Position numbers and translations under genes: made by a program | Part shown: piece after piece, positions 1-64,000 of the stretch | How positions within the stretch are numbered: position 1 is the first letter of the stretch | Layout of the letters: each line of letters begins with the position of its first letter | Source of the DNA: Narcine bancroftii | Lineage: Eukaryota | Direction of reading: 5' to 3' | DNA: 64,000 bases | NCBI RefSeq assembly: GCF_036971445.1 | Contig: NC_091470.1 | Location: forward strand, 152,892,001-152,956,000 | Notes under the pieces: model-generated | Seen by the model: only the letters and a program-made list of their open reading frames with translations | What the model was told of the DNA's origin: nothing | The model's database searches: none

Positions 1-140
1 TTCAATCTTAGTTATTGTTTGATACTGAATATCTTTGCTTCCTCGCCATTTTTTAAAAAGTTGTCACCAATATTTTTTCTACATGTAGATATTGGATGTA
101 GAGCTGCTGAATTAATTGCTTCCTCTTATTCCCTTGACAG

Positions 141-166
141 CACACAGGATTGATACCGATGGTTGA
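141..166 (+). CDS. DNAJC11: DNAJC11 terminal coding exon (partial gene; rest lies upstream of window)
   Basis: Pyrimidine tract + acceptor (cccttgacag|) then phase-1 exon encoding (x)HRIDTDG*, matching the vertebrate DNAJC11 C-terminus (SHRIDTDG*); tail-to-tail with THAP3 as in human synteny. Confidence 0.85.
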
Positions 167-2254
167 GGATGAGATGAGCAGTGATGTGGGTTTGGACCTG
201 AACAGAGATCAACTGCTAAACCTACTCTAAATTAAAGAGGGAATGCACATATTGTTTTTATGTATGTAGAATTTTTGTTCTTTTCTGTGTATAAAAGATG
301 AAAAAAATGCTTTTACAGATCACCAAATAAAACATTTGGCCATGGTTTTTCCATGTCATATTTGTCATTGGATGCTGTAACAGTCTGAAGTAATTCAGAC
401 ATTGCACAGCAATTCCTGTGGTCTGGAAAAAGTTTTTGTTTTAAGTCTATTTGATGTACAAAAAAATTAAAAATAAATCCAGACACTATTGCCATAATAA
501 AATTTCAGATTTAGTTTCTATTCTCCATTTGTGAATTTAGACTGTGAATAGCAGGTTATTTTAGCATGTGATCATATATGGTCTCCAATATCAGACTAGA
601 AAGGGCCTTGCTCTAAAAGTATACATATACTTTAAAAAGAATGTACAGTATTCTTTGCAGAAAAAAGTTGTTTTAAAATGGATTTCTTTGGTGACAAGGA
701 ATCCTTGCATTGTAATGGTCACCTGAAAGCTGTAAGACTCATTGGAGAATGATCCAGAGGTGAATTCTCTCCTTGGATAGTCTGAGATCCAGTGGATTCT
801 CTTGTATTAGCTGCTCTGATACCAGGTAGCCTCGGGTAGCTAAGGGGGTCAAACAAGAGCTAATTGTGCCTTTTAAAAGAGTAGGACATGCACTCACTTC
901 CTCAGTGTATACCCTCTCAAAGACAGATCTACAAATTCAACCAAAAACCTCAAATAAACTATTTGGCTAAGCCGTGAGATTACCAGTAACAACCTCAAAT
1001 CCACACATTATTTGTTTAGTTTATTTTCTTGATCCAATGGTGTCAATTTTGAGTTGAGAATGATCTCAGAGGACTCTCAATGCACTTGTACTCTGCCCAC
1101 TCATCATTAGCAGGATTTTTTTGTTAGAGTTTCTGGAAATTGATAGAGCAGGAATTCCACTTCCCCTGATCATGAGGGTTTGTTGTGACCAAATGTAGCC
1201 TTTCATGCCAAATAACAATGCTGAGATTGTCAATCAAATGTGGTGAACATGGAGGCCATACAGATTCTCTACCCTCCTGTAGTACCTGAAGCAGATCTTT
1301 TTTTCTGTTCAGGGTTTGACTTTTGATTTTCAAATCAGAGATATTAGAAATGAAAAGGCTTCTCATTTTATGTCTCCATTGTTTGCATCAAATACTCTCC
1401 AGTTTACTACACCATGTTAAATAAAGAGTAAAATTACAGTGCACTTCCCCAATAGGATGTTTTACACTTTTAACACTTTTGTGTCTTCCTTCATTAAAGC
1501 ATCAACTTGATTTGGCTCATGCTATTAGTAACAGTTTTGTAGACTCCTTAATAGGGGCTGTCGGAATTGTGCAGCCTTTAGACTGTATTAGCCTGGACCT
1601 AACAACTGTTATGTGCATGGTTTGGCCTAAATGATACTTAACTGCATCAAAATTGTGTTGCAATGCAACAGATACCAGCAATTATAACAATTGTGGTTAA
1701 GTCCAGCATTGCTAGCAGTCCATGACTTGACAAACAATGCAAATTTCTCTCTGGCTAAACAAAGAAAGTTTTCCAAGGGATTGCTGTGATGTATATAGAA
1801 TATGGGTGCTTGGAGCAAGTCCTCAGCAAACATTCAAGCAAAGAAGTTCATAATTTGGCATTGAGATGTCTCTGCAAAAGACAGTAAAACCAGGAAAGTA
1901 TGTATGTCACCTTGCATTTTGAAAGGTCAGACTTATAATCCCAAACTGGCAACTAGTATGTTACAGTTACAAATTGTGACAATCAATTGCCAGAATTCTT
2001 TACAAATCAATTACAGAGATGTTTCCAGGGACGAGCAAGACAATATGACAGGTTTCAACATTGTCACAGTTTGTAACAAGGTCAATCTCCCTCAGCAGTA
2101 TCATTTCTAGATTATGTTGACTGTCTATCCTTCAAACATCATTTTTTGCAGTTTGCACCAATGTGGAGATTTAGTGAACAATCCATTCACTCTGTTCTTC
2201 GTTTCTTCACCCTCCATATACACTCCACCCCCACCCCCCCCCCCCCCCCCGGGT

Positions 2255-2575
2255 TTAATTTATACAGTCCTGTAGGTGGGCGATGTCTGTGAGGGCCACC
2301 TCACTGGGCGTTGACTGACTCTTTGCTCTCAGGTTCTCCAATTCCTCCTTGACTGCTTGCCATTTCCTCACCATTCTCCTCATTTCCTCCTGCTTCACCT
2401 TCAGCCGCCTCCGCAGCTTCTCATTCTTTTCAAGGGCAGCAAATAGTCTCCTCTTCATCATGCCCAGGTTGGTGGCTGCATATGTGTGATCTGCACTGCC
2501 TTTAGAGGAAATCTCTTCAGTGTGGGTTGCCAGGGGTCGTTTCTTCTCTGCTCCACACTGCACTGGTTCGGGCAC
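2255..2575 (-). CDS. THAP3: THAP3 coding exon 4 (HCF-1-binding DHTY motif + coiled coil, stop)
   Basis: Acceptor ttctactctcag|GTG; VPEPVQ...SADHTYAA...LFAALEKNEKLRRRLK...CIN*; DHxY motif followed by coiled coil is typical of THAP proteins. Confidence 0.85.
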   Translation of the reverse strand: MPEPVQCGAEKKRPLATHTEEISSKGSADHTYAATNLGMMKRRLFAALEKNEKLRRRLKVKQEEMRRMVRKWQAVKEELENLRAKSQSTPSEVALTDIAHLQDCIN

Positions 2576-3210
2576 CTGAGAGTAGAAATTCATGATGACT
2601 CAACAGTAATAAATTGATAGGGTAAGCACAGGTCAAAAGGGTAGATCACATCACCCTATTTGTGAGACCAAACCCTTCTGCAAATGCAACTGAGCAAGTC
2701 AGTTTTCATTTGAACATTAACAGCCATAAAGTTTATAACTGCACTCTTATAGATTTGCATGCTATAAATGTCCACATTTAAAATGAACAATTGCTTATAT
2801 TTGACAGTGTTATTAAACCATTTAAGATTTATATATTTTCACTAATTTCAAAGTTTTCTGATGCAGTGTCTTAAATGGCCTATTTATTACTGTAAGAAAA
2901 GCTGTTCTTGCTCACCAGTTTGCATTGAAGCTCTTTCATCCGAGAACAAATATAAATCAGGAAATGTGTCGCTTCCAATGAGAAGGCAGATGGGACCTCA
3001 ATTTAAAAATTTTACTCAAAAACTGGCACTACCAATAGAGCAGTACTGTACTGCATGAAAGGATAACTTTAACTCAGATGAATGTGTTACCCACTGAGTC
3101 ACAGGAAAATATCAAGTTTCCCCAAAGGAGGGAGCATTCTGTTTCCCACCACTCCCCTCTCAAATGCTCAACCATTCAGGTTTAATGTGCTTTGACTTTC
3201 AAATACCCAC

Positions 3211-3306
3211 CATTTCAGGCATTTCTTCGGCAATTTCAGTCTTAACAACCTCAGTCTTTGTAGCTTCACTGATTATTTTCAGCTTTTTCCTTGCACGATG
3301 TCTCTG
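3211..3306 (-). CDS. THAP3: THAP3 coding exon 3 (linker)
   Basis: tttcccag|CAG...GAAATG|gtgggt; 96 nt, phase 0/0, open: QRHRARKKLKIISEATKTEVVKTEIAEEMPEM; NAGNAG acceptor allows alternative start at 3303. Confidence 0.7.
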
Positions 3307-3750
3307 CTGGGAAATGAACAGAAGTTATGGACCATAACTTTAGAATGGGTTGAAGAAAGGTCCTCTTCATAATGTGTAAAAATGATGACTGGCTGAGGGA
3401 CTGACTCCACAATCAATGATAATCCACCAGCACTTTGTCCAAGCACCCATGAGTCTCAATATTATTTTTTGAATTCTATAACAATCTGCCAATATGGTTG
3501 AACTGAGATAGAACATCTCATGCATTGTTTGTACAGTGATAGAGATTTAACAGAACGTCTGCATGGCACAAGGAAAACCTTCTCATTTTGGATCAAGTAC
3601 TTCGAGTCAAACCTCTAACTTTGTTCTCAATGAAGATCTCAAAATCAAACCTTTTTTTTCCCCCCCACACTTAGCCATCGAACTAACATATAAATTTCCT
3701 ATGCACCAGAGTACAATCTTAATGGAAGCTTTCAAACCATCTATTTAGAT

Positions 3751-10737: not shown

Positions 10738-12392
10738 CTGTTCAGGAAGAACTTTCAAAAGTTAATCACCACTCGGATAACAACATTTTGCATATCTACA
10801 TCAGTTTTCACAAGGTCAGTAATTCCTGAAGTGCTTGACAGCAGTTTGAGTTGCATTTGTTCATTTGATGTACACAAGTACAGTATTTACTTGTGCTTTG
10901 CAAAATTTTATTATAACCATGGTAATAATCAGGTAAGTTTCATTGGTTAAGGGATAAATATTAACCAAAATAGGACACTTTTCTTCAAAATAACAGCTAC
11001 TTTTTTTTTAAAAAGACACCCAACAAACAAACGAGACCTCAGTTTGACACCATCTCATTTGGAAGATCTCACTTCTAACACCGTACGTTCCCCACTATTG
11101 GCACTTGTCGCAAAGGAGTCTAGATCTTTTGTTCAGGTTTATGAAGTGGGCTTCAACATTGAGACAAATGTTACAAATGCACTGTATTGGGTCTTCCACG
11201 ATATTCGGTTGCAGAGGTGAGGCACGAAAGACAAGCAAGGAAGTTTGAACTTCAGATACATTTAGAACCAAATAATATGCAGTTAAATAGCATCATGTGA
11301 GCAAAACAAAGTTTGACTTCATTTTAAAGTCGTATATTCACCAGTGCCCAAAGACGTCAACATTTCAGTCCAAACTCGGCAGAACTTGTTAGACTGCTCC
11401 CACTTTTCTGATGAGACATGACGCATTTTGAACTGGGTTGAGATGGCTACTGACATGTCACAGAGAGCAAGAGGTAATCCTATTGTTCAGATTGATCATG
11501 ATGGGACATAAAGTTGACATAAATACCAGATTTTAGGCATTACAAACTGTGTCAAGTCTTTTTAAAAGGCTTATTATCCACTTTGGTTCTGTAACCTTGA
11601 ATATCCTGACCTACAATTTGTTGGTTTATTGGACTTTGTTTTATATCTTTTGCACGAATGTCTGCAGATCATACCTGAACACCAGTTTGAATGTCAAGGT
11701 TGTGCTCCCGTGTACGAGGCTCTTTCATCTTCAAGTAGATCAAATCTTTTGTCATCTTGAATACTTTGAACAAGTCACATACTCTCAATAATTATAATCC
11801 CTTTTAACATCATAGAGCCAAAAAATATCCAACTGAAGTCTGCCCAATAACCCTCATGAAGAAATGGCTTTAGTGTCTCAATCTGTCATTAGAATTTGTT
11901 GATCTTCACCAAAATGGCCAGGGTTAAAATTAATCTTGGTATCAATTGGGGAACAAAGTGATTACTCATGTGCCCTCTGCCAGAAGGTGTGTGCAAAATT
12001 AGAATTACAATACAATTTCCCCATGTAATCTTAAATGCCTGGTCACACTCATTTCGATTTGCAAATTTAAAAAAGGATTGGAAGAGTTGATATATTCCAA
12101 TAATAGAATTAAGCCTTATCAATGGTCAAAAAGATTTGAACAGGGCTCTCCACGAAGAGATTTATAAACTCTGAACACATTTAGCTTTTGCGGGAATTTA
12201 ACTCCTGAATTCGCTGCAAGCAGCAGGGATTTACAAGTCAGTGAGCTTTGTATCCCATTTACACTTTTGTGATTGTAAAGTATTTGCCAAAAGAACAGCC
12301 TCCAGATAAAAGCAACACGTGCTGTCACTAGTTGCTTGGAAGTTTATGACATACACAATGGACAACTGAACTATTCCAGCCACAAAAATCAT

Positions 12393-13400
12393 GTCCCAAG
12401 ATTACCAGACCCTTGCTAGTGTCCCAAGATTACCAGACCCTTGCTAGTGTCCCAAGATTACCAGACCCTTGCTAGTGTCCCAAGATTACCAGACCCTTGC
12501 TAGTGTCCCAAGATTACCAGACCCTTGCTAGTGTCCCAAGATTACCAGACCCTTGCTAGTGTCCCAAGATTACCAGACCCTTGCTAGTGTCCCAAGATTA
12601 CCAGACCCTTGCTAGTGTCCCAAGATTACCAGACCCTTGCTAGTGTCCCAAGATTACCAGACCCTTGCTAGTGTCCCAAGATTACCAGACCCTTGCTAGT
12701 GTCCCAAGATTACCAGACCCTTGCTAGTGTCCCAAGATTACCAGACCCTTGCTAGTGTCCCAAGATTACCAGACCCTTGCTAGTGTCCCAAGATTACCAG
12801 ACCCTTGCTAGTGTCCCAAGATTACCAGACCCTTGCTAGTGTCCCAAGATTACCAGACCCTTGCTAGTGTCCCAAGATTACCAGACCCTTGCTAGTGTCC
12901 CAAGATTACCAGACCCTTGCTAGTGTCCCAAGATTACCAGACCCTTGCTAGTGTCCCAAGATTACCAGACCCTTGCTAGTGTCCCAAGATTACCAGACCC
13001 TTGCTAGTGTCCCAAGATTACCAGACCCTTGCTAGTGTCCCAAGATTACCAGACCCTTGCTAGTGTCCCAAGATTACCAGACCCTTGCTAGTGTCCCAAG
13101 ATTACCAGACCCTTGCTAGTGTCCCAAGATTACCAGACCCTTGCTAGTGTCCCAAGATTACCAGACCCTTGCTAGTGTCCCAAGATTACCAGACCCTTGC
13201 TAGTGTCCCAAGATTACCAGACCCTTGCTAGTGTCCCAAGATTACCAGACCCTTGCTAGTGTCCCAAGATTACCAGACCCTTGCTAGTGTCCCAAGATTA
13301 CCAGACCCTTGCTAGTGTCCCAAGATTACCAGACCCTTGCTAGTGTCCCAAGATTACCAGACCCTTGCTAGTGTCCCAAGATTACCAGACCCTTGCTAGT
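12393..13400. repeat. Perfect minisatellite, 28-bp unit x 36
   Basis: gtcccaagattaccagacccttgctagt repeated without visible variation, 1008 bp, PHF13 intron 3. Confidence 0.97.
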
Positions 13401-49320: not shown

Positions 49321-50420
49321 CTATCTGGCTTCCTTCAAATTGCTGTGTTTGGTGTGTGCTGTGTATAATTTACTGCCTTTCTTATAACAATGACCACATT
49401 GGATGCAAAACATTTTTAGAAGAATCCAACATTTGTGAAACATACATCAAAAATAATTGGTTGTATATTTTGCAGCCGAGTTTCATTTAAATTGTTATTC
49501 TGTGTAGCTTGAGGTTGTGGACAGCAGCCATTTATCCCTTTCCTGAACTCAATAAATAAGAGGCACAGATGTCCAACAGAAAAAGTGGGGAAACAAGCTT
49601 TAGAGAGAAATGGACTATTGACAGTTCAGATTTGTGTAGCCTTGTTCCAGCTCTCTGAAAGAGCTTCCAAAATGGCTCACATCCTCTATCTCTTCAAAAA
49701 CCTGCCAAATTCACCACTGCTTCCATCACTTTCAGGGTGTGCATCCCAGACCCACTGCATAACCCCTTTCTGGTTCTTTTGGGAATATACCTTTAATTGG
49801 AGATGCACTGCAATTTCAAAGCACTATTTTTTCCAATAAAACTGACAGTTCTGAAGAAATTGCACCAGAGCTTGCAGTTATTGCTGAGGTGTGTCAGTGA
49901 TATTTTGCTGCTCTTCTTTCCACATAGCACCACTGGAAACATAACAATAAACCTTCACTTTTTCCAAATATTTCAAAAGAACACATTTACTGTTGAGAAT
50001 ATACATTTAAGGAGGGAAGTCACGTGATGGAGTAGTGGCTGGTCGGGTGGAAACAACCCTCTCCAGAGAAAATAAAAAAAAGTGTAAAAAAACAGAGCTC
50101 AATAAACATAAAATACAGGAAGAGAAAGATAAAGTTAAAGAGAAAGAAGATGGCACCCAAAAGAAAAAAAAAACAGAAAAGGGAAGAAGGAAAATCACTG
50201 GAGAAGAAAGAAGAAGGCCTTATCTGCACGTCGGAGCAGAGAGCCACCAAGGAGAGGAGTGGCCTATCACCAGTGTTGGTGAGTCCCCAGAGGAGCAGTG
50301 TCCTCCAGACTGGCAGACCTCAAAAATGGCTTTCAGAGTCAAGAAGAGGTGCGCAACTGCACATGCGTGAAGAGTTGCGCATCCTCAGTGCGCAAGTAAA
50401 AGAAAAGGTTAACGCCGACA

Positions 50421-50823
50421 GGAGCGGCCAGCTGCGGAGCGGCCAGCTGCGGAGCGGCCAGCTGCGGAGCGGCCAGCTGCGGAGCGGCCAGCTGCGGAGC
50501 GGCCAGCTGCGGAGCGGCCAGCTGCGGAGCGGCCAGCTGCGGAGCGGCCAGCTGCGGAGCGGCCAGCTGCGGAGCGGCCAGCTGCGGAGCGGCCAGCTGC
50601 GGAGCGGCCAGCTGCGGAGCGGCCAGCTGCGGAGCGGCCAGCTGCGGAGCGGCCAGCTGCGGAGCGGCCAGCTGCGGAGCGGCCAGCTGCGGAGCGGCCA
50701 GCTGCGGAGCGGCCAGCTGCGGAGCGGCCAGCTGCGGAGCGGCCAGCTGCGGAGCGGCCAGCTGCGGAGCGGCCAGCTGCGGAGCGGCCAGCTGCGGAGC
50801 GGCCAGCTGCGGAGCGGCCAGCT
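50421..50823. repeat. Perfect minisatellite, 15-bp unit x ~27
   Basis: ggagcggccagctgc repeated; in frame within old ORF1 as (RSGQL)27. Confidence 0.97.
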
Positions 50824-50916
50824 AAGAGACGCCCAGTATCGGGGCATTCGGCTGGGGGAACCAAACAAGAAAGAAGAGTGGTGAGAATGAAAGGCTGGAA
50901 AAGGGTGAGCGGCAGC

Positions 50917-51100
50917 AGGTCGGCCGCGCCGCAGGGGGCCCAGCAGCGGGTCGGCCGCGCCGCAGGGGGCCCAGCAGCGGGTCGGCCGCGCCGCAGGGGG
51001 CCCAGCAGCGGGTCGGCCGCGCCGCAGGGGGCCCAGCAGCGGGTCGGCCGCGCCGCAGGGGGCCCAGCAGCGGGTCGGCCGCGCCGCAGGGGGCCCAGCA
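50917..51100. repeat. GC-rich minisatellite, 31-bp unit x ~6
   Basis: gggtcggccgcgccgcagggggcccagcagc repeated. Confidence 0.95.
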
Positions 51101-51544
51101 GGAAAGAAGAAGGTAAAATAAAAGGACAAAGTTTAGATAAAGCCTTTTTCGAAGAACAAATGAGGTCATTAAAAGAATGGCTATCATTTGAAATTAGTTC
51201 AATCAAAAGAAAAATGAAAAGAGCTGAAGACAGAATGCAAAGCTTAGAGTTGGTCATAAGTGAAATAAGGAAAAGAGTAGAAAATGAGGAGGAACGAGAA
51301 GCTGCTGTAGAAATGGAGATAAATTATTTAAGAGGGAATTTGGAAGAGAGCGAAAAAAAAATTAAAGAGACACAAGATTGATTGTCACAAAAAATTGACG
51401 TATTGGAAAACTACAGAAGGCGAAACAACATAAATATAATGAGCCTGAAAGAAGGCAAAGAAGGGTCAGATATGAAGGAATTTATAAAAGGATGGATCCT
51501 GAAGGTGCTGGGAAAGACAGACACACATGAAGAAATAGAAATAG

Positions 51545-53967
51545 GGAGGAGGAGTCACGTGATGGAGTAGTGGCCGGACGGTGAACTCCAGCCCTCTCCA
51601 GAAAAGTCGGGAAAAACAAGAGAAAACACAAAGGCACAGAAATAAAAGTTACAGAAAAGTGAGTATAAAGGTGGAAAGAAGATGGCGACAAAAAAAGAAA
51701 AGTCGAAAGCAACGGTAAGAAGAGAGGAAGAGAAGACAAAGGAGGAAAAAGGTGAAGGCCTTACCTGTCCGAAGAGGCCCGATGCGGAGAGAGAAACCCG
51801 CTCCCTCAGGTCGGTAAATAATGGACTACAAAAATGGCTCGCAGAGCCAAACAAAAGTGCGCAACCGCGCATGCGCGAAGTTTCGCGCATGCGCGATGCG
51901 AATGAAAAAAAACACACCGACGGGAGGGGGGACCAGCTGGGGAGTCGATCTCCACAGCCGGCAACGACAGCTGCAGAACACCTGCAGCAAGAAGAGACCA
52001 CAGAAGACAATAGAAACAAGATAGAAGAGGAGGAAAGGGCAACAAAGAAACAACAGATGGAAGAGGAAGAGTATGGTGAAATAGAAGAAGAAAAGAGAGG
52101 CAAGGTAAAGGATATACTTGCTCTTATTAGAGGATACATGGAATCATTTAAAGAATGGCAAACACAGGAATTTAAGGATTTAAGAAAAAGAATAAACAAC
52201 ACAGAGGAGAAAATAATTAAAATGGAGATGACCTTAACAGAAATGGGAAAAAAAATGGACAAGATGGAAGAGCGGGCAGTAGCAGCAGAAATGGAGGTAG
52301 AAGACTTAAAAAAGAAATTGGAGAAATCTAATAAAAAAACTAAAGAGACACAAGAACTACTAGCTCAAAAAATAGATACAATGGAAAACCATAACAGAAG
52401 AAATAACATAAAGATAGTGGGCCTTAAGGAAGATGAAGAAGGCAAGAATATGAGGGAGTTTATAAAAGAGTGGATCCCTAAGACCCTAGGATGTCCAGAA
52501 CTACAGCATGAAATGGAAATAGAAAGGGCACATAGAGTATTGGCCTCTAAACCACAACCACAACAAAAACCAAGATCTATTGTAGTAAAATTCCTAAGAT
52601 ATACTACAAGAGAAAAGGTACTGGAGAAGACAATGGAAAAAGTAAGAGAGGGCAACAAACCACTGGAGTATAAAGGGCAAAAAATCTTCATTTATCCAGA
52701 TATAAGTTTTGAACTCCTAAAGAAGAGAAAAGAGTTCAATACAGCAAAGGCGATTTTATGGAAGAAAGGGTATAAATTTATACTAAAGCATCCAGCGGTA
52801 TTGAAAATATTTATTCCAGGACAGCAAAACAGACTATTCTCGGATCCAGAAGAAGCACGAAAATTTGCAGAACAATTACAAAAATAGACTGAGGGAGGAA
52901 GACGGGTAATGAGAGTTAAAATGATCACGACTGATATGTATGTGGGTAAAGACAAAAATAGACTGAGGGATGAAGACGGGTAATGAGAGTAAAAATGATC
53001 ACGATTGATATGTATGCAGGTAAAGAGGTATAAGAGTGAATAGAGACAATGAGCATACATGAATGTATCTGTACTTAGAGGAAAATATAGATAGTATAGA
53101 CAAGAATTAATAAGGGAAGGTAATGGAATAGAGAGAATAAGGAGGGAATTAAAAGAGGGACCTTTGTGACATATGAAAAGTGAAATCTTTTCTGGGGGAG
53201 GCGGGGTGGGGGGAAATAGCGGTCACTGCACAATCAGCTGACGCTTGCGAGTGGATTCGCAAATCCAAATGGAGAGGGGAGATGTGGTTGTCCGACAAGG
53301 GATAAAGGACAACTCAGGAGGTGAAGGGGAGATTGGGGATAAATAAGATAGAAATAGGAGAATAAGGAAAATGTTAGATGTTGTAGGAATGTTGTCTTAT
53401 AAAGAGTTGAAAATAAGAAAACAGAAATGGAAAAGGAGGAAAGGTAATGATGGAAAAACGGAAAGAGAAGATAAACAAAATATAAAAGGGCTACGCTGAA
53501 CTATATGTCTTTAAATATTAATGGAATACATAACCAAATTAAAAGGAAGAAACTACCAAATTTAAATGAATAAATGTATTCCATTAGAAAAAAATAACAT
53601 ATTGGTTAAGAAATAATATTGAAATATTCGAACAAGTATAGGAGCCTTACATTAAATACAATAGCGAAAACCTACCGGGGACAAACATTACCTAAGTTGA
53701 TGGAAGGAGAAGGAAAGAAAAGAATGGACTCAGTAGAATTTCTGGTGTAATTTTGTTGAATGACAACATTGCCTGACTGGATTAATGCAACCTAGATTGT
53801 ATACCTAAAATGGATGAGAGGGGGGGGTGGGGGGGTGGTTTGGGAGGAAAGGGGGGGGGGAGAAAAAGTCACTGTATATGTGTGAAAAGAAATAGTGTAT
53901 ATCATGGCTAATGTGATTTATGGTGTGAAAAATAAAAAAAATTATTAAAAAAAAAAAAAAAAAAAAA
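51545..53967 (+). mobile_element. Young full-length ORF1-only (half-L1/HAL1-like) retroelement, ~2.4 kb
   Basis: 12-bp TSD aaatagaaatag (51533-51544, 53968-53979); 5' UTR, intact ORF1, spacer, ORF2 N-stub + C-stub, G-rich 3' UTR, AATAAA at 53931, pure poly(A). Confidence 0.92.
51682..52887 (+). CDS. L1-type ORF1p (coiled coil, RRM, CTD; Transposase_22-like), 401 aa, intact
   Basis: ENHNRRNNIKIVGLKE, EIERAHR, PRSIVVKFLRY, IFIYPDIS...KRKEFN, HPAVLKI: canonical vertebrate L1 ORF1p motifs. Confidence 0.92.
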   Translation: MATKKEKSKATVRREEEKTKEEKGEGLTCPKRPDAERETRSLRSVNNGLQKWLAEPNKSAQPRMREVSRMRDANEKKHTDGRGDQLGSRSPQPATTAAEHLQQEETTEDNRNKIEEEERATKKQQMEEEEYGEIEEEKRGKVKDILALIRGYMESFKEWQTQEFKDLRKRINNTEEKIIKMEMTLTEMGKKMDKMEERAVAAEMEVEDLKKKLEKSNKKTKETQELLAQKIDTMENHNRRNNIKIVGLKEDEEGKNMREFIKEWIPKTLGCPELQHEMEIERAHRVLASKPQPQQKPRSIVVKFLRYTTREKVLEKTMEKVREGNKPLEYKGQKIFIYPDISFELLKKRKEFNTAKAILWKKGYKFILKHPAVLKIFIPGQQNRLFSDPEEARKFAEQLQK

Positions 53968-55159
53968 AAATAGAAATAGAAAGGGCACGTAGAGCGCTAG
54001 TACCAAAACCGCCACCAAATCAAAAACCAAGATCCATATTGGTAAAATTTCTAAGATATACGACAATAGAAAACATACTGGAGCAGGCAAGAAAGAAGAT
54101 TAGAGAAGACAACAATCCATTGGAATACAAGGGACAAAAATTATTTTTTTACCCAGACATAAACTTCGAGCTTTTAAAGAAGAGGAAGGAATTCAACACG
54201 GTGAAAACAATCTTATGGAAGAAAGGGTATAACTTTATATTAAGACATCCAGCAGTACTCAAAATATTCATTCTTGAGGAATGGAATAGACTGTTCTCGG
54301 ACCCAAAGAAAGCCCAAGAATTTGCCGAACATTTGCAGGACAGGAGAAGAGAGGAGGAGGAGTGACAAGAAGGAAGACCGGCAAGAAAATATACAAAAAT
54401 ATAAAGATAATGTATATATAAAGATTTAAAGATGGATAAGAGAAGGGGAAGAAGGGAAAAAAGAGATAAAGCTTTGTTACAAGTATAGGAAAATAGTGTT
54501 CTCTGGGGGTGAGAATAATGGTCACTGCGAAATCGGTTGATGCTTGCGAGTAAGTTTGCAAACTGAATGGAAAGGGGAGTTGTGATTGCCGTCAATGGAC
54601 AGGAGGCAATCCAGGAGAGGAGGTTCATTTGGGGTTAAAGGGTTATTGCTTGTTGCTTAAAAAACAGTAATGGAAAAAAAGGGGATGGAGGAGGTGAAGA
54701 GGCAGAAAAGAAATGAAAATAAAGATATAAGATGGCCACGTTGGACCATATAACTATAAACATTAATGGAATATATAACCAAGTTTAAGCGTATCCCATT
54801 GGAGAAAAAAAAAATCACATATAATTTAAAACACAAAGTTACAATGTTTGAAAAAAACCTGGGAACCATATATGGAACATAACAGAAAGAGCAGGCCTCG
54901 GACCACCACCACCTAAAATGATAAGAAGATAAATGCGATCGGATTTAATTTGAATAAGTAAATGATACGTCTTTTTTGTTTGTATTCCTTTTGTATAAAG
55001 ATATTGTTTTATTGTATTTTATATGTCCCATATTTACTGTTTTTGGAGGGGGGTGAAAATGAGAAAATGTCACTGAATATTTAAAGATCATAAATAAAGA
55101 ATTACAACAAAAAATAAAATGTACATTTAAGGAAGCAAAAGTTTTGAACCTGCCTTGGA

Positions 55160-55450
55160 GTTGAATCTTGTGCATTGCACAAAAGTGCTGAATAAACTTA
55201 GCAGATCGTGCAGCATCTCTAAGAAGAAAATGCATCCAACGTTTTGGGCCTTAGCCCTTCATCAAGACATGAACAAAAAGAAGGCTGAAGAGTAGGCCCA
55301 AATAAAAAAGGTGGGGGGGGGGAAGGAGGAGGGAGGAAGGGGCAGGAGTACAGGCTAACAAGGAAGAAGTCATCGGTGAATATCAGTGGGAAGGTTGAAG
55401 AGAAAAAAAGCTGAGAAGTGATAGCTGGAGGAAAGACAAAGGGATAGGGT
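55160..55450 (-). mobile_element. Penelope-derived short element with decayed hammerhead-like motif
   Basis: Minus strand catgtc-TTGATGA-agggctaaggccc-aaaa-cgtt-ggatg at 55233-55271 plus purine/pyrimidine tract. Confidence 0.55.
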
Positions 55451-56065
55451 GACTTGATTCTTGTCTGTTTTTCCTCCCAAATCACATGCAGCGGACCATA
55501 CCTGCTTCTTCTTTGAGTAGTGTGTGGAATAGTTTTAGAGTATCAGCCAGTTAGCTCATCGGGGGGAGGGGGTTGGTGGACAGATGGATAGATAGGGGAG
55601 AGAGGGGGTTAGTGGACAGGGGAAACTTGGGAGCATGAATGAGTGAGCAATTTCTATGTTCACTAGTGAATCTTTTGTTTTGAAAGGAAAACAACCAAAT
55701 TCAGTCACAAGCTAGTCATTTGAACAAGCCAATTTTTGAATACCAGCAATGATTTTAACATGTTAATAAGTAAAGAAGAAAAATGCCTTTCTATCCATTT
55801 AAATCACTAAGTCTTCAACTTTGCACAACCAATTTTGTGCCAGGAGTGCTCTAGACCTGTTTTCCAGGTAAATGGAGACATTGATTTTTACAGGAATTGT
55901 ACAGTATTTTATTTTCCAGTGTATTACAGTTGATAGTTAAAAATCAAACTATTGGCTCATTTATAGATTTCAATATTTGATTCTCCAAGCTCCCAATATT
56001 TTATGTTACAGAAATTAAATGCTTTCCTAATTTCATAATTGTTAGCTACTATACACATACTGTAC

Positions 56066-60689: not shown

Positions 60690-61570
60690 AGACTGATCGA
60701 TCATAAAAGTCCACATCGAGGGGGTCAGAAGTGGAGAGGGTGAAGAACTTAAAGTTCCTGAGTGTCAACATCTCAAAGGATCTGCCCTGTGGCCTCCATA
60801 TCGTTATAATCATAAAGAAGGTTCAACAGCGGCTACACTTCGTGAGGAGTTTGAGGAGATTCAGTCTGTCACCAAAGACTCAAAAATTTCTATAGGTGTA
60901 CCATGGAGAGCATTCTGTCTGGTTGCATCACTGTCTGGTTGCATCACTGTCTGGTTGCATCACTGTCTGGTTGCATCACTGTCTGGTTGCATCACTGTCT
61001 GGTTGCATCACTGTCTGGTTGCATCACTGTCTGGTTGCATCACTGTCTGGTTGCATCACTGTCTGGTTGCATCACTGTCTGGTTGCATCACTGTCTGGTT
61101 GCATCACTGTCTGGTTGCATCACTGTCTGGTTGCATCACTGTCTGGTTGCATCACTGTCTGGTTGCATCACTGTCTGGTTGCATCACTGTCTGGTTGCAT
61201 CACTGTCTGGTTGCATCACTGTCTGGTTGCATCACTGTCTGGTTGCATCACTGTCTGGTTGCATCACTGTCTGGTTGCATCACTGTCTGGTTGCATCACT
61301 GTCTGGTTGCATCACTGTCTGGTTGCATCACTGTCTGGTATGGATGTGTCAATGTACAGGATAGGAACAGGTGACAGTGGGTTGTAAATTTGGCCAGTAC
61401 CATCATAGGTATTAGTATTCATTCCCTTAAGGTGTCTTAAGAAAGCACCACTCAGGCCATGCCCTCTCCACACTGCTACCATCAGGGAGGAGGTACAGGA
61501 GGAACATGAGCACCCAGCAGCACAAGGACAGCTTCTTCCCTTCTGCCATCACATTTCTGAATGGACAACG
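60690..61570 (+). mobile_element. Rex1/Babar-type LINE 3' fragment containing an expanded minisatellite
   Basis: VERVKNLKFL, KKVQQRLHFVRSLRRF, MESILSGCITVWYG, LLPSGRRYR, KDSFFPSAITFLN. Confidence 0.78.
60915..61339. repeat. Perfect minisatellite, 16-bp unit x 26.5
   Basis: ctgtctggttgcatca repeated without variation. Confidence 0.97.
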
Positions 61571-62142: not shown

Positions 62143-64000
62143 GGAGGAGTCACGTGATGGAGTAGTGGCCGGACGGTGAACTCCAGCCCTCTCCAGAAAA
62201 GTCGGGAAAAACAAAAGAAAACACAAAGGCACAGAAATAAAAGTTACAGAAAAGTGAGTATAAAGGTGGAAAGAAGATGGCGACAAAAAAAGAAAAATCG
62301 AAAGCAACGGTAAGAAGAGAGGAAGAGAAGACAAAGGAGGAAAAAGGTGAAGGCCTTACCTGTCCGAAGAGGCCCACTGCGGAGAGAGAAACCCGCTCCC
62401 TCAGGTCGGTAAATAATGGACTACAAAAATGGCTCGCAGAGCCGAGTAAAAGTGCGCAACCGCGCATGCGCGAAACTTCGCGCATGCGCGATGCGAATGA
62501 AAAAAAACACACCGACGGGAGGGGGGACCAGCTGGGGAGTCGATCTCCACAGCCGGCAACGACAGCTGCAGAACACCTGCAGCAAGAAGAGACCACAGAA
62601 GACAATAGAAACAAGAAAGAAGAGGAGGAAAGGGCAACAAAGAAACAACAGATGGTCAACCCAGAGGAAGAAGAAGAGGAAGAGGAAGAGTACAGTGAAA
62701 TAGAAGAAGAAAAGAAAGGCAAGGTAAAAGATATACTTGCTCTTATTAAAGGATACATGGAGTCATTTAAAGAATGGCAAACACAGGAATTTAAGGATTT
62801 AAGAAAAAGAATAAACAACACAGAAGAGAAAATAAATAAAATGGAGATGACCTTAACAGAAATGGGAAAGAAAATGGACAAGATGGAAGAGCGGGCAGTA
62901 GCAGCAGAAATGGAGGTAGAAGACTTAAAAAAGAAATTGGAGAAATCTAATAAAAAAACTAAAGAGACACAAGAACTACTAGCTCAAAAAATAGATACAA
63001 TGGAAAACCATAACAGAAGAAATAACATAAAGATAGTGGGCCTTAAGGAAGATGAAGAAGGCAAGAATATGAGGGAGTTTATAAAAGAGTGGATCCCTAA
63101 GACCCTAGGATGTCCAGAACTACAGCAAGAAATGGAAATAGAAAGGGCACATAGAGTATTGGCCTCTAAACCACAACCACAACAAAAACCAAGATCTATT
63201 GTAGTAAAATTCCTAAGATATACTACAAGGGAAAAGGTACTGGAGAAGACAATGGAAAAAGTAAGAGAGGGCAACAAACCACTGGAGTATAAAGGGCAAA
63301 AAATCTTCATTTATCCAGATATAAGTTTTGAACTCCTAAAGAAGAGAAAAGAGTTCAATACAGCAAAGGCGATTTTATGGAAGAAAGGGTATAAATTTAT
63401 ACTAAAGCATCCAGCGGTATTGAAAATATTTATTCCAGGACAACAAAACAGACTATTCTCGGATCCAGAAGAAGCACGAAAATTTGCAGAACAATTACAA
63501 AAATAGACTGAGGGAGGAAGACGGGTAATGAGAGTTAAAATGTTCACGATTGATATGTATGTGGGTAAAGACAAAAATAGACTGAGGGATGAAGACGGGT
63601 AATGAGAGTAAAAATGATCACGATTGATATGTATGCGGGTAAAGAGGTATAAGAGTGAATAGAGACAATGAGCATACATGAATGTATCTGTACTTAGAGG
63701 AAAATATAGATAGTATAGACAAGAATTAATAAGGGAAGGTAATGGAATAGAGAGAATAAGGAGGGAATTAAAAGAGTGACCTTTGTGACATATGAAAAGT
63801 GAAATCTTTTCTGGGGGAGGCGGGGTGGGGGGAAATAGCGGTCACTGCAAAATCAGTTGACGCTTGCGAGTGGATTCGCAAATCCAAATGGAGAGGGGAG
63901 ATGTGGTTGTCCGACAAGGGATAAAGGACAACTCAGGAGGTGAAGGGGAGATTGGGGATAAATAAGATAGAAATAGGAGAATAAGGAAAATGTTGGATGT
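62143..64000 (+). mobile_element. Second young copy of the ORF1-only L1-derived family (cut by window edge)
   Basis: Near-identical and collinear with 51548-53380; the ORF2 region is not visible. Confidence 0.88.
62277..63506 (+). CDS. L1-type ORF1p, 409 aa, intact
   Basis: 9 substitutions and one 8-aa indel relative to 51682-52887. Confidence 0.92.
   Translation: MATKKEKSKATVRREEEKTKEEKGEGLTCPKRPTAERETRSLRSVNNGLQKWLAEPSKSAQPRMRETSRMRDANEKKHTDGRGDQLGSRSPQPATTAAEHLQQEETTEDNRNKKEEEERATKKQQMVNPEEEEEEEEEYSEIEEEKKGKVKDILALIKGYMESFKEWQTQEFKDLRKRINNTEEKINKMEMTLTEMGKKMDKMEERAVAAEMEVEDLKKKLEKSNKKTKETQELLAQKIDTMENHNRRNNIKIVGLKEDEEGKNMREFIKEWIPKTLGCPELQQEMEIERAHRVLASKPQPQQKPRSIVVKFLRYTTREKVLEKTMEKVREGNKPLEYKGQKIFIYPDISFELLKKRKEFNTAKAILWKKGYKFILKHPAVLKIFIPGQQNRLFSDPEEARKFAEQLQK

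Follow-up and report, generated by a model that had tools for sequence, protein, structure and literature searches.

A 64,000-nt stretch of the Narcine bancroftii genome (assembly GCF_036971445.1, contig NC_091470.1, positions 152,892,001 to 152,956,000, forward strand; hereafter the window) contains a 2.4-kb half element derived from the retrotransposon L1 at 51545..53979, right target-site duplication (TSD) included. Its open reading frame 1 (ORF1) is intact, and ORF2 is reduced to its two ends, joined at a deletion junction. The features described in an initial annotation, made from the sequence alone, were all found in place (Table 1). The half element corresponds to a co-resident parent L1 of 6.0 kb minus ORF2 nt 79-3668, and all retained parts are 91-98% identical. 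The family goes back to one deletion of 3,590 nt, in an L1 of this genome, and numbers ~3,000 ORF1-only copies. The family is L1-derived, of the HAL1 type and of independent origin: it codes for ORF1p without ORF2p, keeps both parent ends and was amplified as a unit with TSD and poly(A).

The product of ORF1 was identified as L1 ORF1p by its match to the structure of the human protein (PDB 2ykp, E 4.9e-13), as the initial annotation had proposed. Pfam gave nothing for ORF1 at the default threshold and only a sub-threshold match to Transposase_22 (E 0.084). The common family length is 407 aa, and the 401 aa of the window copy result from a private in-frame deletion of 18 nt. Among named proteins, those most similar to this ORF1 belong to batoid rays (Narcine bancroftii, 76-92%; Hemitrygon akajei, 46%), in agreement with the chondrichthyan origin suggested earlier. 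Gene models in databases carry this ORF1, fused or mislabelled, as FAM122B, GrpE-like or tRNA deaminase isoforms. In the window, the 12-mer AAATAGAAATAG is present only as two copies, one at each end of the element. Because the tail also covers the three leading A's of the 12-mer and the G at its end may belong to the element itself, the TSD, first given as 12 bp, was refined to 9-12 bp. The pure poly(A) tail and the 26 codons of endonuclease start, with AGG where the parent has ATG, were recovered as described. The C-terminal ORF2 segment had been called decayed. It is present from 53565, with an ATG at 53566 and a TAG at 53639-53641; the decay was not confirmed, as the segment is 96.9% identical to the parent. 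An Rfam search of 49500-56000 gave no match.

Family, age and parent of the half element

Junction copies were located by pattern matching in the 3.33-Gb genome. The 42-nt junction string gave 1,228 exact matches (reversed control, 0). A looser two-part pattern gave 3,077, and among the first 100 listed 97 had this junction and three a second type. The junction is thus not private to the window copy, and the element belongs to a family, as claimed. The opposite case, a unique junction with full ORF2 in other copies, was checked and did not occur: among 30 loci chosen by ORF1 alone (five of them also in the junction sample), 29 had the junction, one stopped earlier and none continued into ORF2. 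All 150 scored candidates chosen by ORF1 alone, which were the best candidates only, were identical over aa 181-401.

The sample studied comprised 118 junction copies, nearly all from one chromosome (the window copy, 80 exact-string matches and 37 loose-pattern matches). Ninety-nine were full length, and 93 of the 118 had their own detectable TSD of 10-21 bp (median 16). An ORF1 of at least 395 aa was present in 52/70 young and 8/29 older full-length copies. The ORF2 start codon was AGG in 113 copies, ATG in one and unreadable in four. The median distance to the column majority was 0.46% (62 copies, in a sample biased to young copies by its selection). Target sites (n=93) gave the counts C61/A50/T71/C51|A78/A79, i.e. 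CATC|AA, unlike the TT|AAAA of human L1. FastTree, applied to 98 half copies together with 17 full-length ones, grouped the half copies in one ladder-like clade (support 0.895), with terminal branches declining from about 1% to zero and of zero length in eight copies; the tree places the origin of the family in this genome's own L1. The proposal that the element was recently mobile is supported. Half-family markers build up stepwise, which indicates that successive half copies acted as sources while the parent lineage evolved alongside.

A one-off post-insertion deletion, a misassembly or spread by segmental duplication has a negligible probability. It is refuted by the more than 1,200 exact junctions, by unrelated flanks and by individual TSDs in nearly all examined copies. 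Its one foothold is that L057 and L214 have an identical 16-bp TSD; either the same site of another repeat was hit twice or one copy arose by duplication.

An autonomous partner sharing the 5' untranslated region (UTR), ORF1 and 3' UTR had been postulated, and it was found intact. This parent L1 is 94% identical to the half element, and its intact copies have a 407-aa ORF1 and a 1,265-aa ORF2, the latter with endonuclease and reverse transcriptase domains and a match to human L1 ORF2p (E 6.5e-184). Twenty parent copies were fetched; seven had an open 1,265-aa ORF2 and four had both frames open. A pattern demanding the endonuclease continuation gave 8,240 matches, graded at 70-96% identity to the half element, and the youngest parent type gave 2,076 exact 42-mer matches. 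With 95% of ORF2 deleted and its start lost, the half element is not an autonomous L1; its parent is. CATC|AA-like target sites were read by eye in the parent flanks, as in those of the half copies, which is expected if one endonuclease cut both. A 3'-end pattern gave 8,069 matches, of which 30 were examined (13 half, 15 ORF2-bearing, 2 unclassified); since it misses several of the youngest parents, these counts give no clean half:parent ratio. A search for the parent through PF03372 (Pfam) was rejected, as it led mostly to non-L1 endonucleases (1/30 loci was a distant broken L1).

The L1 subfamilies of this genome form a graded series, apparently of one lineage (L131-L160, L161-L180, L394-L405). 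The series holds thousands of endonuclease-bearing copies, many of them intact, a mammal-like pattern in a cartilaginous fish. A parent-type copy at L321:226-2045 has an open 407-aa ORF1, ends in the spacer and has a TSD but no poly(A); it is a tailless 3'-truncated insertion.

A second half family and exchange with the parent

The half element was inserted within ORF1 of a second, older half-L1 (family B). The family B junction gave 596 matches at no more than one mismatch. Among 30 copies, the 17 that could be aligned differed from the column majority by 3.4-7.1%; the remaining 13 were truncated or interrupted and were dropped. Family B is 67-76% identical to the young family and 82-87% to an older L1, so it had a separate origin. 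Read by eye, its junction links nt ~54 of ORF2 to nt ~3675, and that of the young family links nt 78 to nt 3669; at either end of the deletion, the breakpoints of the two families are no more than about 25 nt apart. For the kept ORF2 stubs and the pieces of the 3' UTR, folding did not exceed that of shuffled sequences (z +1.8, +1.2, +0.7, -1.2), so RNA structure does not explain the convergent breakpoints. The ORF1 of family B contains GC-rich tandem expansions of 15 bp (50421-50823) and 31 bp (50912-51101). Junction variants near that of family B were seen in L270 and in one loose end of sequencing run X5, and are possibly subfamilies or further origins.

These near-coincident breaks hint at a favoured region, as would be expected if the junction were repeatedly re-made from parent RNA, by splicing or by a reverse-transcriptase jump, and the copies were dead ends. 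Such an origin is highly improbable. The deleted segment has the ends CT...GA, or AC...AG if shifted by the 1-nt microhomology, and not GT-AG; a spliced L1 retrocopy was rejected on the same ground. The half copies have family-specific changes absent from parents, including the AGG codon, and form one clade with stepwise markers. For the bulk of the copies, these shared derived markers refute a re-made junction.

Exchange between half family and parent was examined by a mosaic test with 118 diagnostic columns. Half-type alleles cluster at ORF1 codons 111-145 in the full-length copies L163 and L175 (p 0.0002 each), and parent-type alleles cluster in the half copies L042 (p 0.001) and L069 (p 0.004). 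Some patch alleles are ancestral; the derived core consists of three bases at codons 137, 138 and 145 (one silent), with codon 114 additionally included in half of cases. A pattern combining the half marker with a parent marker gave 35 matches, and 29 of 30 checked continue into an ORF2 with ATG. The 30 fall into three backgrounds of 7, 8 and 15 copies, one 3'-truncated copy included. Twelve patch-bearing copies were picked from the 35-match list, and both frames were open in eight. L319 was considered as a reciprocal recombinant and rejected, as it is a 3'-truncated copy.

The patch marker was found in 65/98 half copies, in three successive codon 145 states. In full-length copies it is restricted to the youngest state (29 copies) and a variant one step away from that state (1), which favours transfer from the half family to the full-length L1. 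The exchange would have occurred by template switching, the likely route, or by gene conversion.

Mode of spread and role of ORF1

The half family is best explained by one deletion followed by mobilization in trans by the intact parent L1, probably with packaging by its own ORF1p, and with patches swapped with the parent; we regard this explanation as probable. The retained 5' UTR is presumed to be an internal promoter, from which the half element would be transcribed. ORF1 would be translated, and its own protein would probably package the half-element RNA. Parent ORF2p would be captured at the poly(A) tail, and insertion would proceed by target-primed reverse transcription with the parent endonuclease and reverse transcriptase. 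Patches would be swapped with the parent along the way, likely as copies switch template. Borrowing of ORF2p in trans is strongly implied by the missing reverse transcriptase, the intact parent and the common target motif. With 2.4 kb against 6 kb, most new half copies are full length and possible sources, which would offset the preference of the parent for its own RNA.

An alternative, which we consider unlikely, keeps the trans mobilization and makes ORF1 a passenger. Parent ORF1p and ORF2p would act together, or ORF2p alone as for short interspersed elements (SINEs), and ORF1 would be open through youth and recombinational repair. The distribution of disabling changes speaks against a passenger. 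Twelve of the 323 private changes in ORF1 are stops, against none of the 106 shared changes (p 0.044), and none of the 57 variants shared by at least three copies is a stop (p 0.012 with the non-coding spectrum); palindrome codons 60-76 were excluded from the substitution tests. Frameshifts number 31 private and three shared classes: a homopolymer slip (four copies, scattered), a missing 74-bp unit at the stop (four) and a 31-nt deletion (nine). No stop or clade-defining frameshift is found among the shared variants. The ORF2 stubs, unlike ORF1, decayed on the trunk, with start loss, a stop and 6 replacement : 0 silent fixed changes. The whole ORF1 was kept by both independent families, which also speaks against a passenger.

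Several observations weigh against a role for ORF1 and bring the passenger alternative closer. In the half-family ORF1, shared changes give an omega of 0.67, not distinguishable from neutral (p 0.17), and rare or private changes one of 0.71; a departure from neutral is found only for rare changes in the RRM-CTD part (omega 0.47, p 0.003). Fixed changes on the half branch are 18 replacement : 6 silent. Internal parent branches have 14:14, against the weak amino-acid constraint in the half family. Recombination distorts the tree underlying these branch counts, and half copies do acquire patches from the parent. ORF1 is open in none of the 11 oldest half copies, and eight of them have one common, frameshifting 31-nt deletion in the palindrome. 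A more general reservation is that the evidence consists of sequences, from which transposition, transcription and protein are deduced. In eight sequencing runs (contigs only), four of them presumed to be RNA and four with other organism codes, none of the pieces listed spanned the junction with 31 letters on each flank, a result uninformative on expression or species range.

The palindrome, whose 4-5-nt loop is seen in both orientations, has repeatedly lost 18 or 31 nt, in half as well as in full-length copies. Short direct repeats of this strong palindrome flank the 31-nt deletion, which is also seen repeatedly in full-length L1s both old and young (L164, L178, L294, L297); it is therefore read as a post-insertion hotspot, which reduces its weight in favour of a passenger ORF1. 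The common deletion of the oldest half copies may instead have been inherited. In younger half copies a base change removes one of the repeats needed for the deletion, and the deletion is rare there.

On balance, selection has probably kept the ORF1 frame open, and the substitution patterns point to a loose constraint on the protein sequence. Use by the half element of its own ORF1p is only moderately supported.

More tentatively, the half family might be a still-active, ORF1-only parasite of L1 that serves as a relaxed-constraint test bed for ORF1, feeding new variants back to the autonomous L1; on this view the patch, built up in steps within the half family, marks some of the youngest intact L1s, in three backgrounds. 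Under the same tentative proposal, the near-identical breakpoints of the two families would indicate cis signals at the ORF2 ends for trans mobilization.

Related elements and layout of the window

Mammalian HAL1 elements are mostly old fossils. With fossil elements, ORF1-only evasion of the L1 cis preference and the importance of ORF1p are hard to test. Here intact half elements coexist with intact parents that are 94% alike, so that a matched trans-complementation assay is possible from natural copies. The HAL1 kind now includes elements of a cartilaginous fish, where it had two separate origins, and the sequences give evidence of ORF1 exchange between a non-autonomous derivative and its helper. 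A literature search, with subscription journals, Repbase and Dfam outside it, found no report of HAL1 outside mammals, none in a chondrichthyan and no HAL1-to-L1 exchange.

Published accounts present HAL1 as a non-autonomous derivative of L1 that carries ORF1 only and had several origins in mammals (PMC5753468, PMC13756887, PMC4859970, PMC4161310, PMC8535693). The half family resembles these elements, as there described, in being L1-derived and non-autonomous, in coding for ORF1p only, in keeping 5' and 3' ends and in having more than one origin (PMC5753468, PMC5786205, PMC13756887, PMC8535693); rat HAL1 copies likewise tend to retain the promoter (PMC8535693). It differs in its host, a cartilaginous fish, its independent origin and very young age, its intact parents in the same genome, its base-resolved breakpoints and its exchange with the autonomous lineage.

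Two retrotransposons of insects, HeT-A (Drosophila) and Ag-Sponge (Anopheles), are presented as ORF1-only analogues among long interspersed elements (LINEs) of other clades, bipartite, non-autonomous and reliant on an autonomous partner (PMC5786205). They belong to the Jockey and CR1 clades, whereas the half family is of the L1 clade and dispersed. HeT-A is telomere-specific. Recombinant L1 families in mouse and rat are also mosaics from exchange between lineages, and strand switching by reverse transcriptase between co-active elements is one proposed route (PMC3600994). As described there, the exchange is between autonomous families (PMC3600994); here one partner, the likely donor, has no ORF2. 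Insertions of L1 truncated at the 3' end share with the half family an ORF1 without functional ORF2 (PMC4859970). The half family differs from these and from spliced L1 in its lack of splice signals, its true 3' end and its self-propagating lineage. Spliced L1 insertions likewise contain ORF1 without functional ORF2.

Table 1. Coordinates of the half elements in the window and of the parts of the young copy.
Feature	Position	Strand	Remarks
Older half-L1 (family B), ORF1 + ORF2 stubs	50014..55121	+	junction near 54788; 12-bp duplication 50002-50013 / 55122-55133
Left TSD	51533..51544	+	12-mer present in window only here and at 53968
5' UTR, common to parent L1	51545..51681	+	96-98% identity to four intact parent copies
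L1 ORF1, intact, 401 aa (family norm 407 aa)	51682..52887	+	94% nt identity to parent ORF1
CpG-rich palindrome within ORF1, 13-bp stem	51866..51895	+	fold z -5.4
Two 74-bp tandem units across ORF1 stop	52878..53026	+	unit number differs between copies
Inter-ORF spacer, kept whole	52888..53486	+	94-95% identity to parent
ORF2 codons 1-26 (endonuclease start), ATG to AGG	53487..53564	+	parent comparison
Deletion junction	53564..53565	+	ORF2 nt 79-3668 (3,590 nt) gone; 1-nt microhomology; no GT-AG ends
Final 43 ORF2 codons, out of frame with first stub, fixed stop at codon 1248	53565..53695	+	parent comparison
3' UTR with G-rich tract	53696..53946	+	94-95% identity to parent
Poly(A) tail, uninterrupted A run	53947..53970	+	
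Right TSD	53968..53979	+	12-mer match to left copy
Second copy of young family (L050)	62143..64000, past window end to about 64570	+	97.1% identity; 409-aa ORF1, 16-bp TSD, same junction

Elsewhere in the window, perfect tandem arrays (100% matches) were found at 12392-13400 (36 x 28 bp) and 60915-61339 (26.6 x 16 bp).
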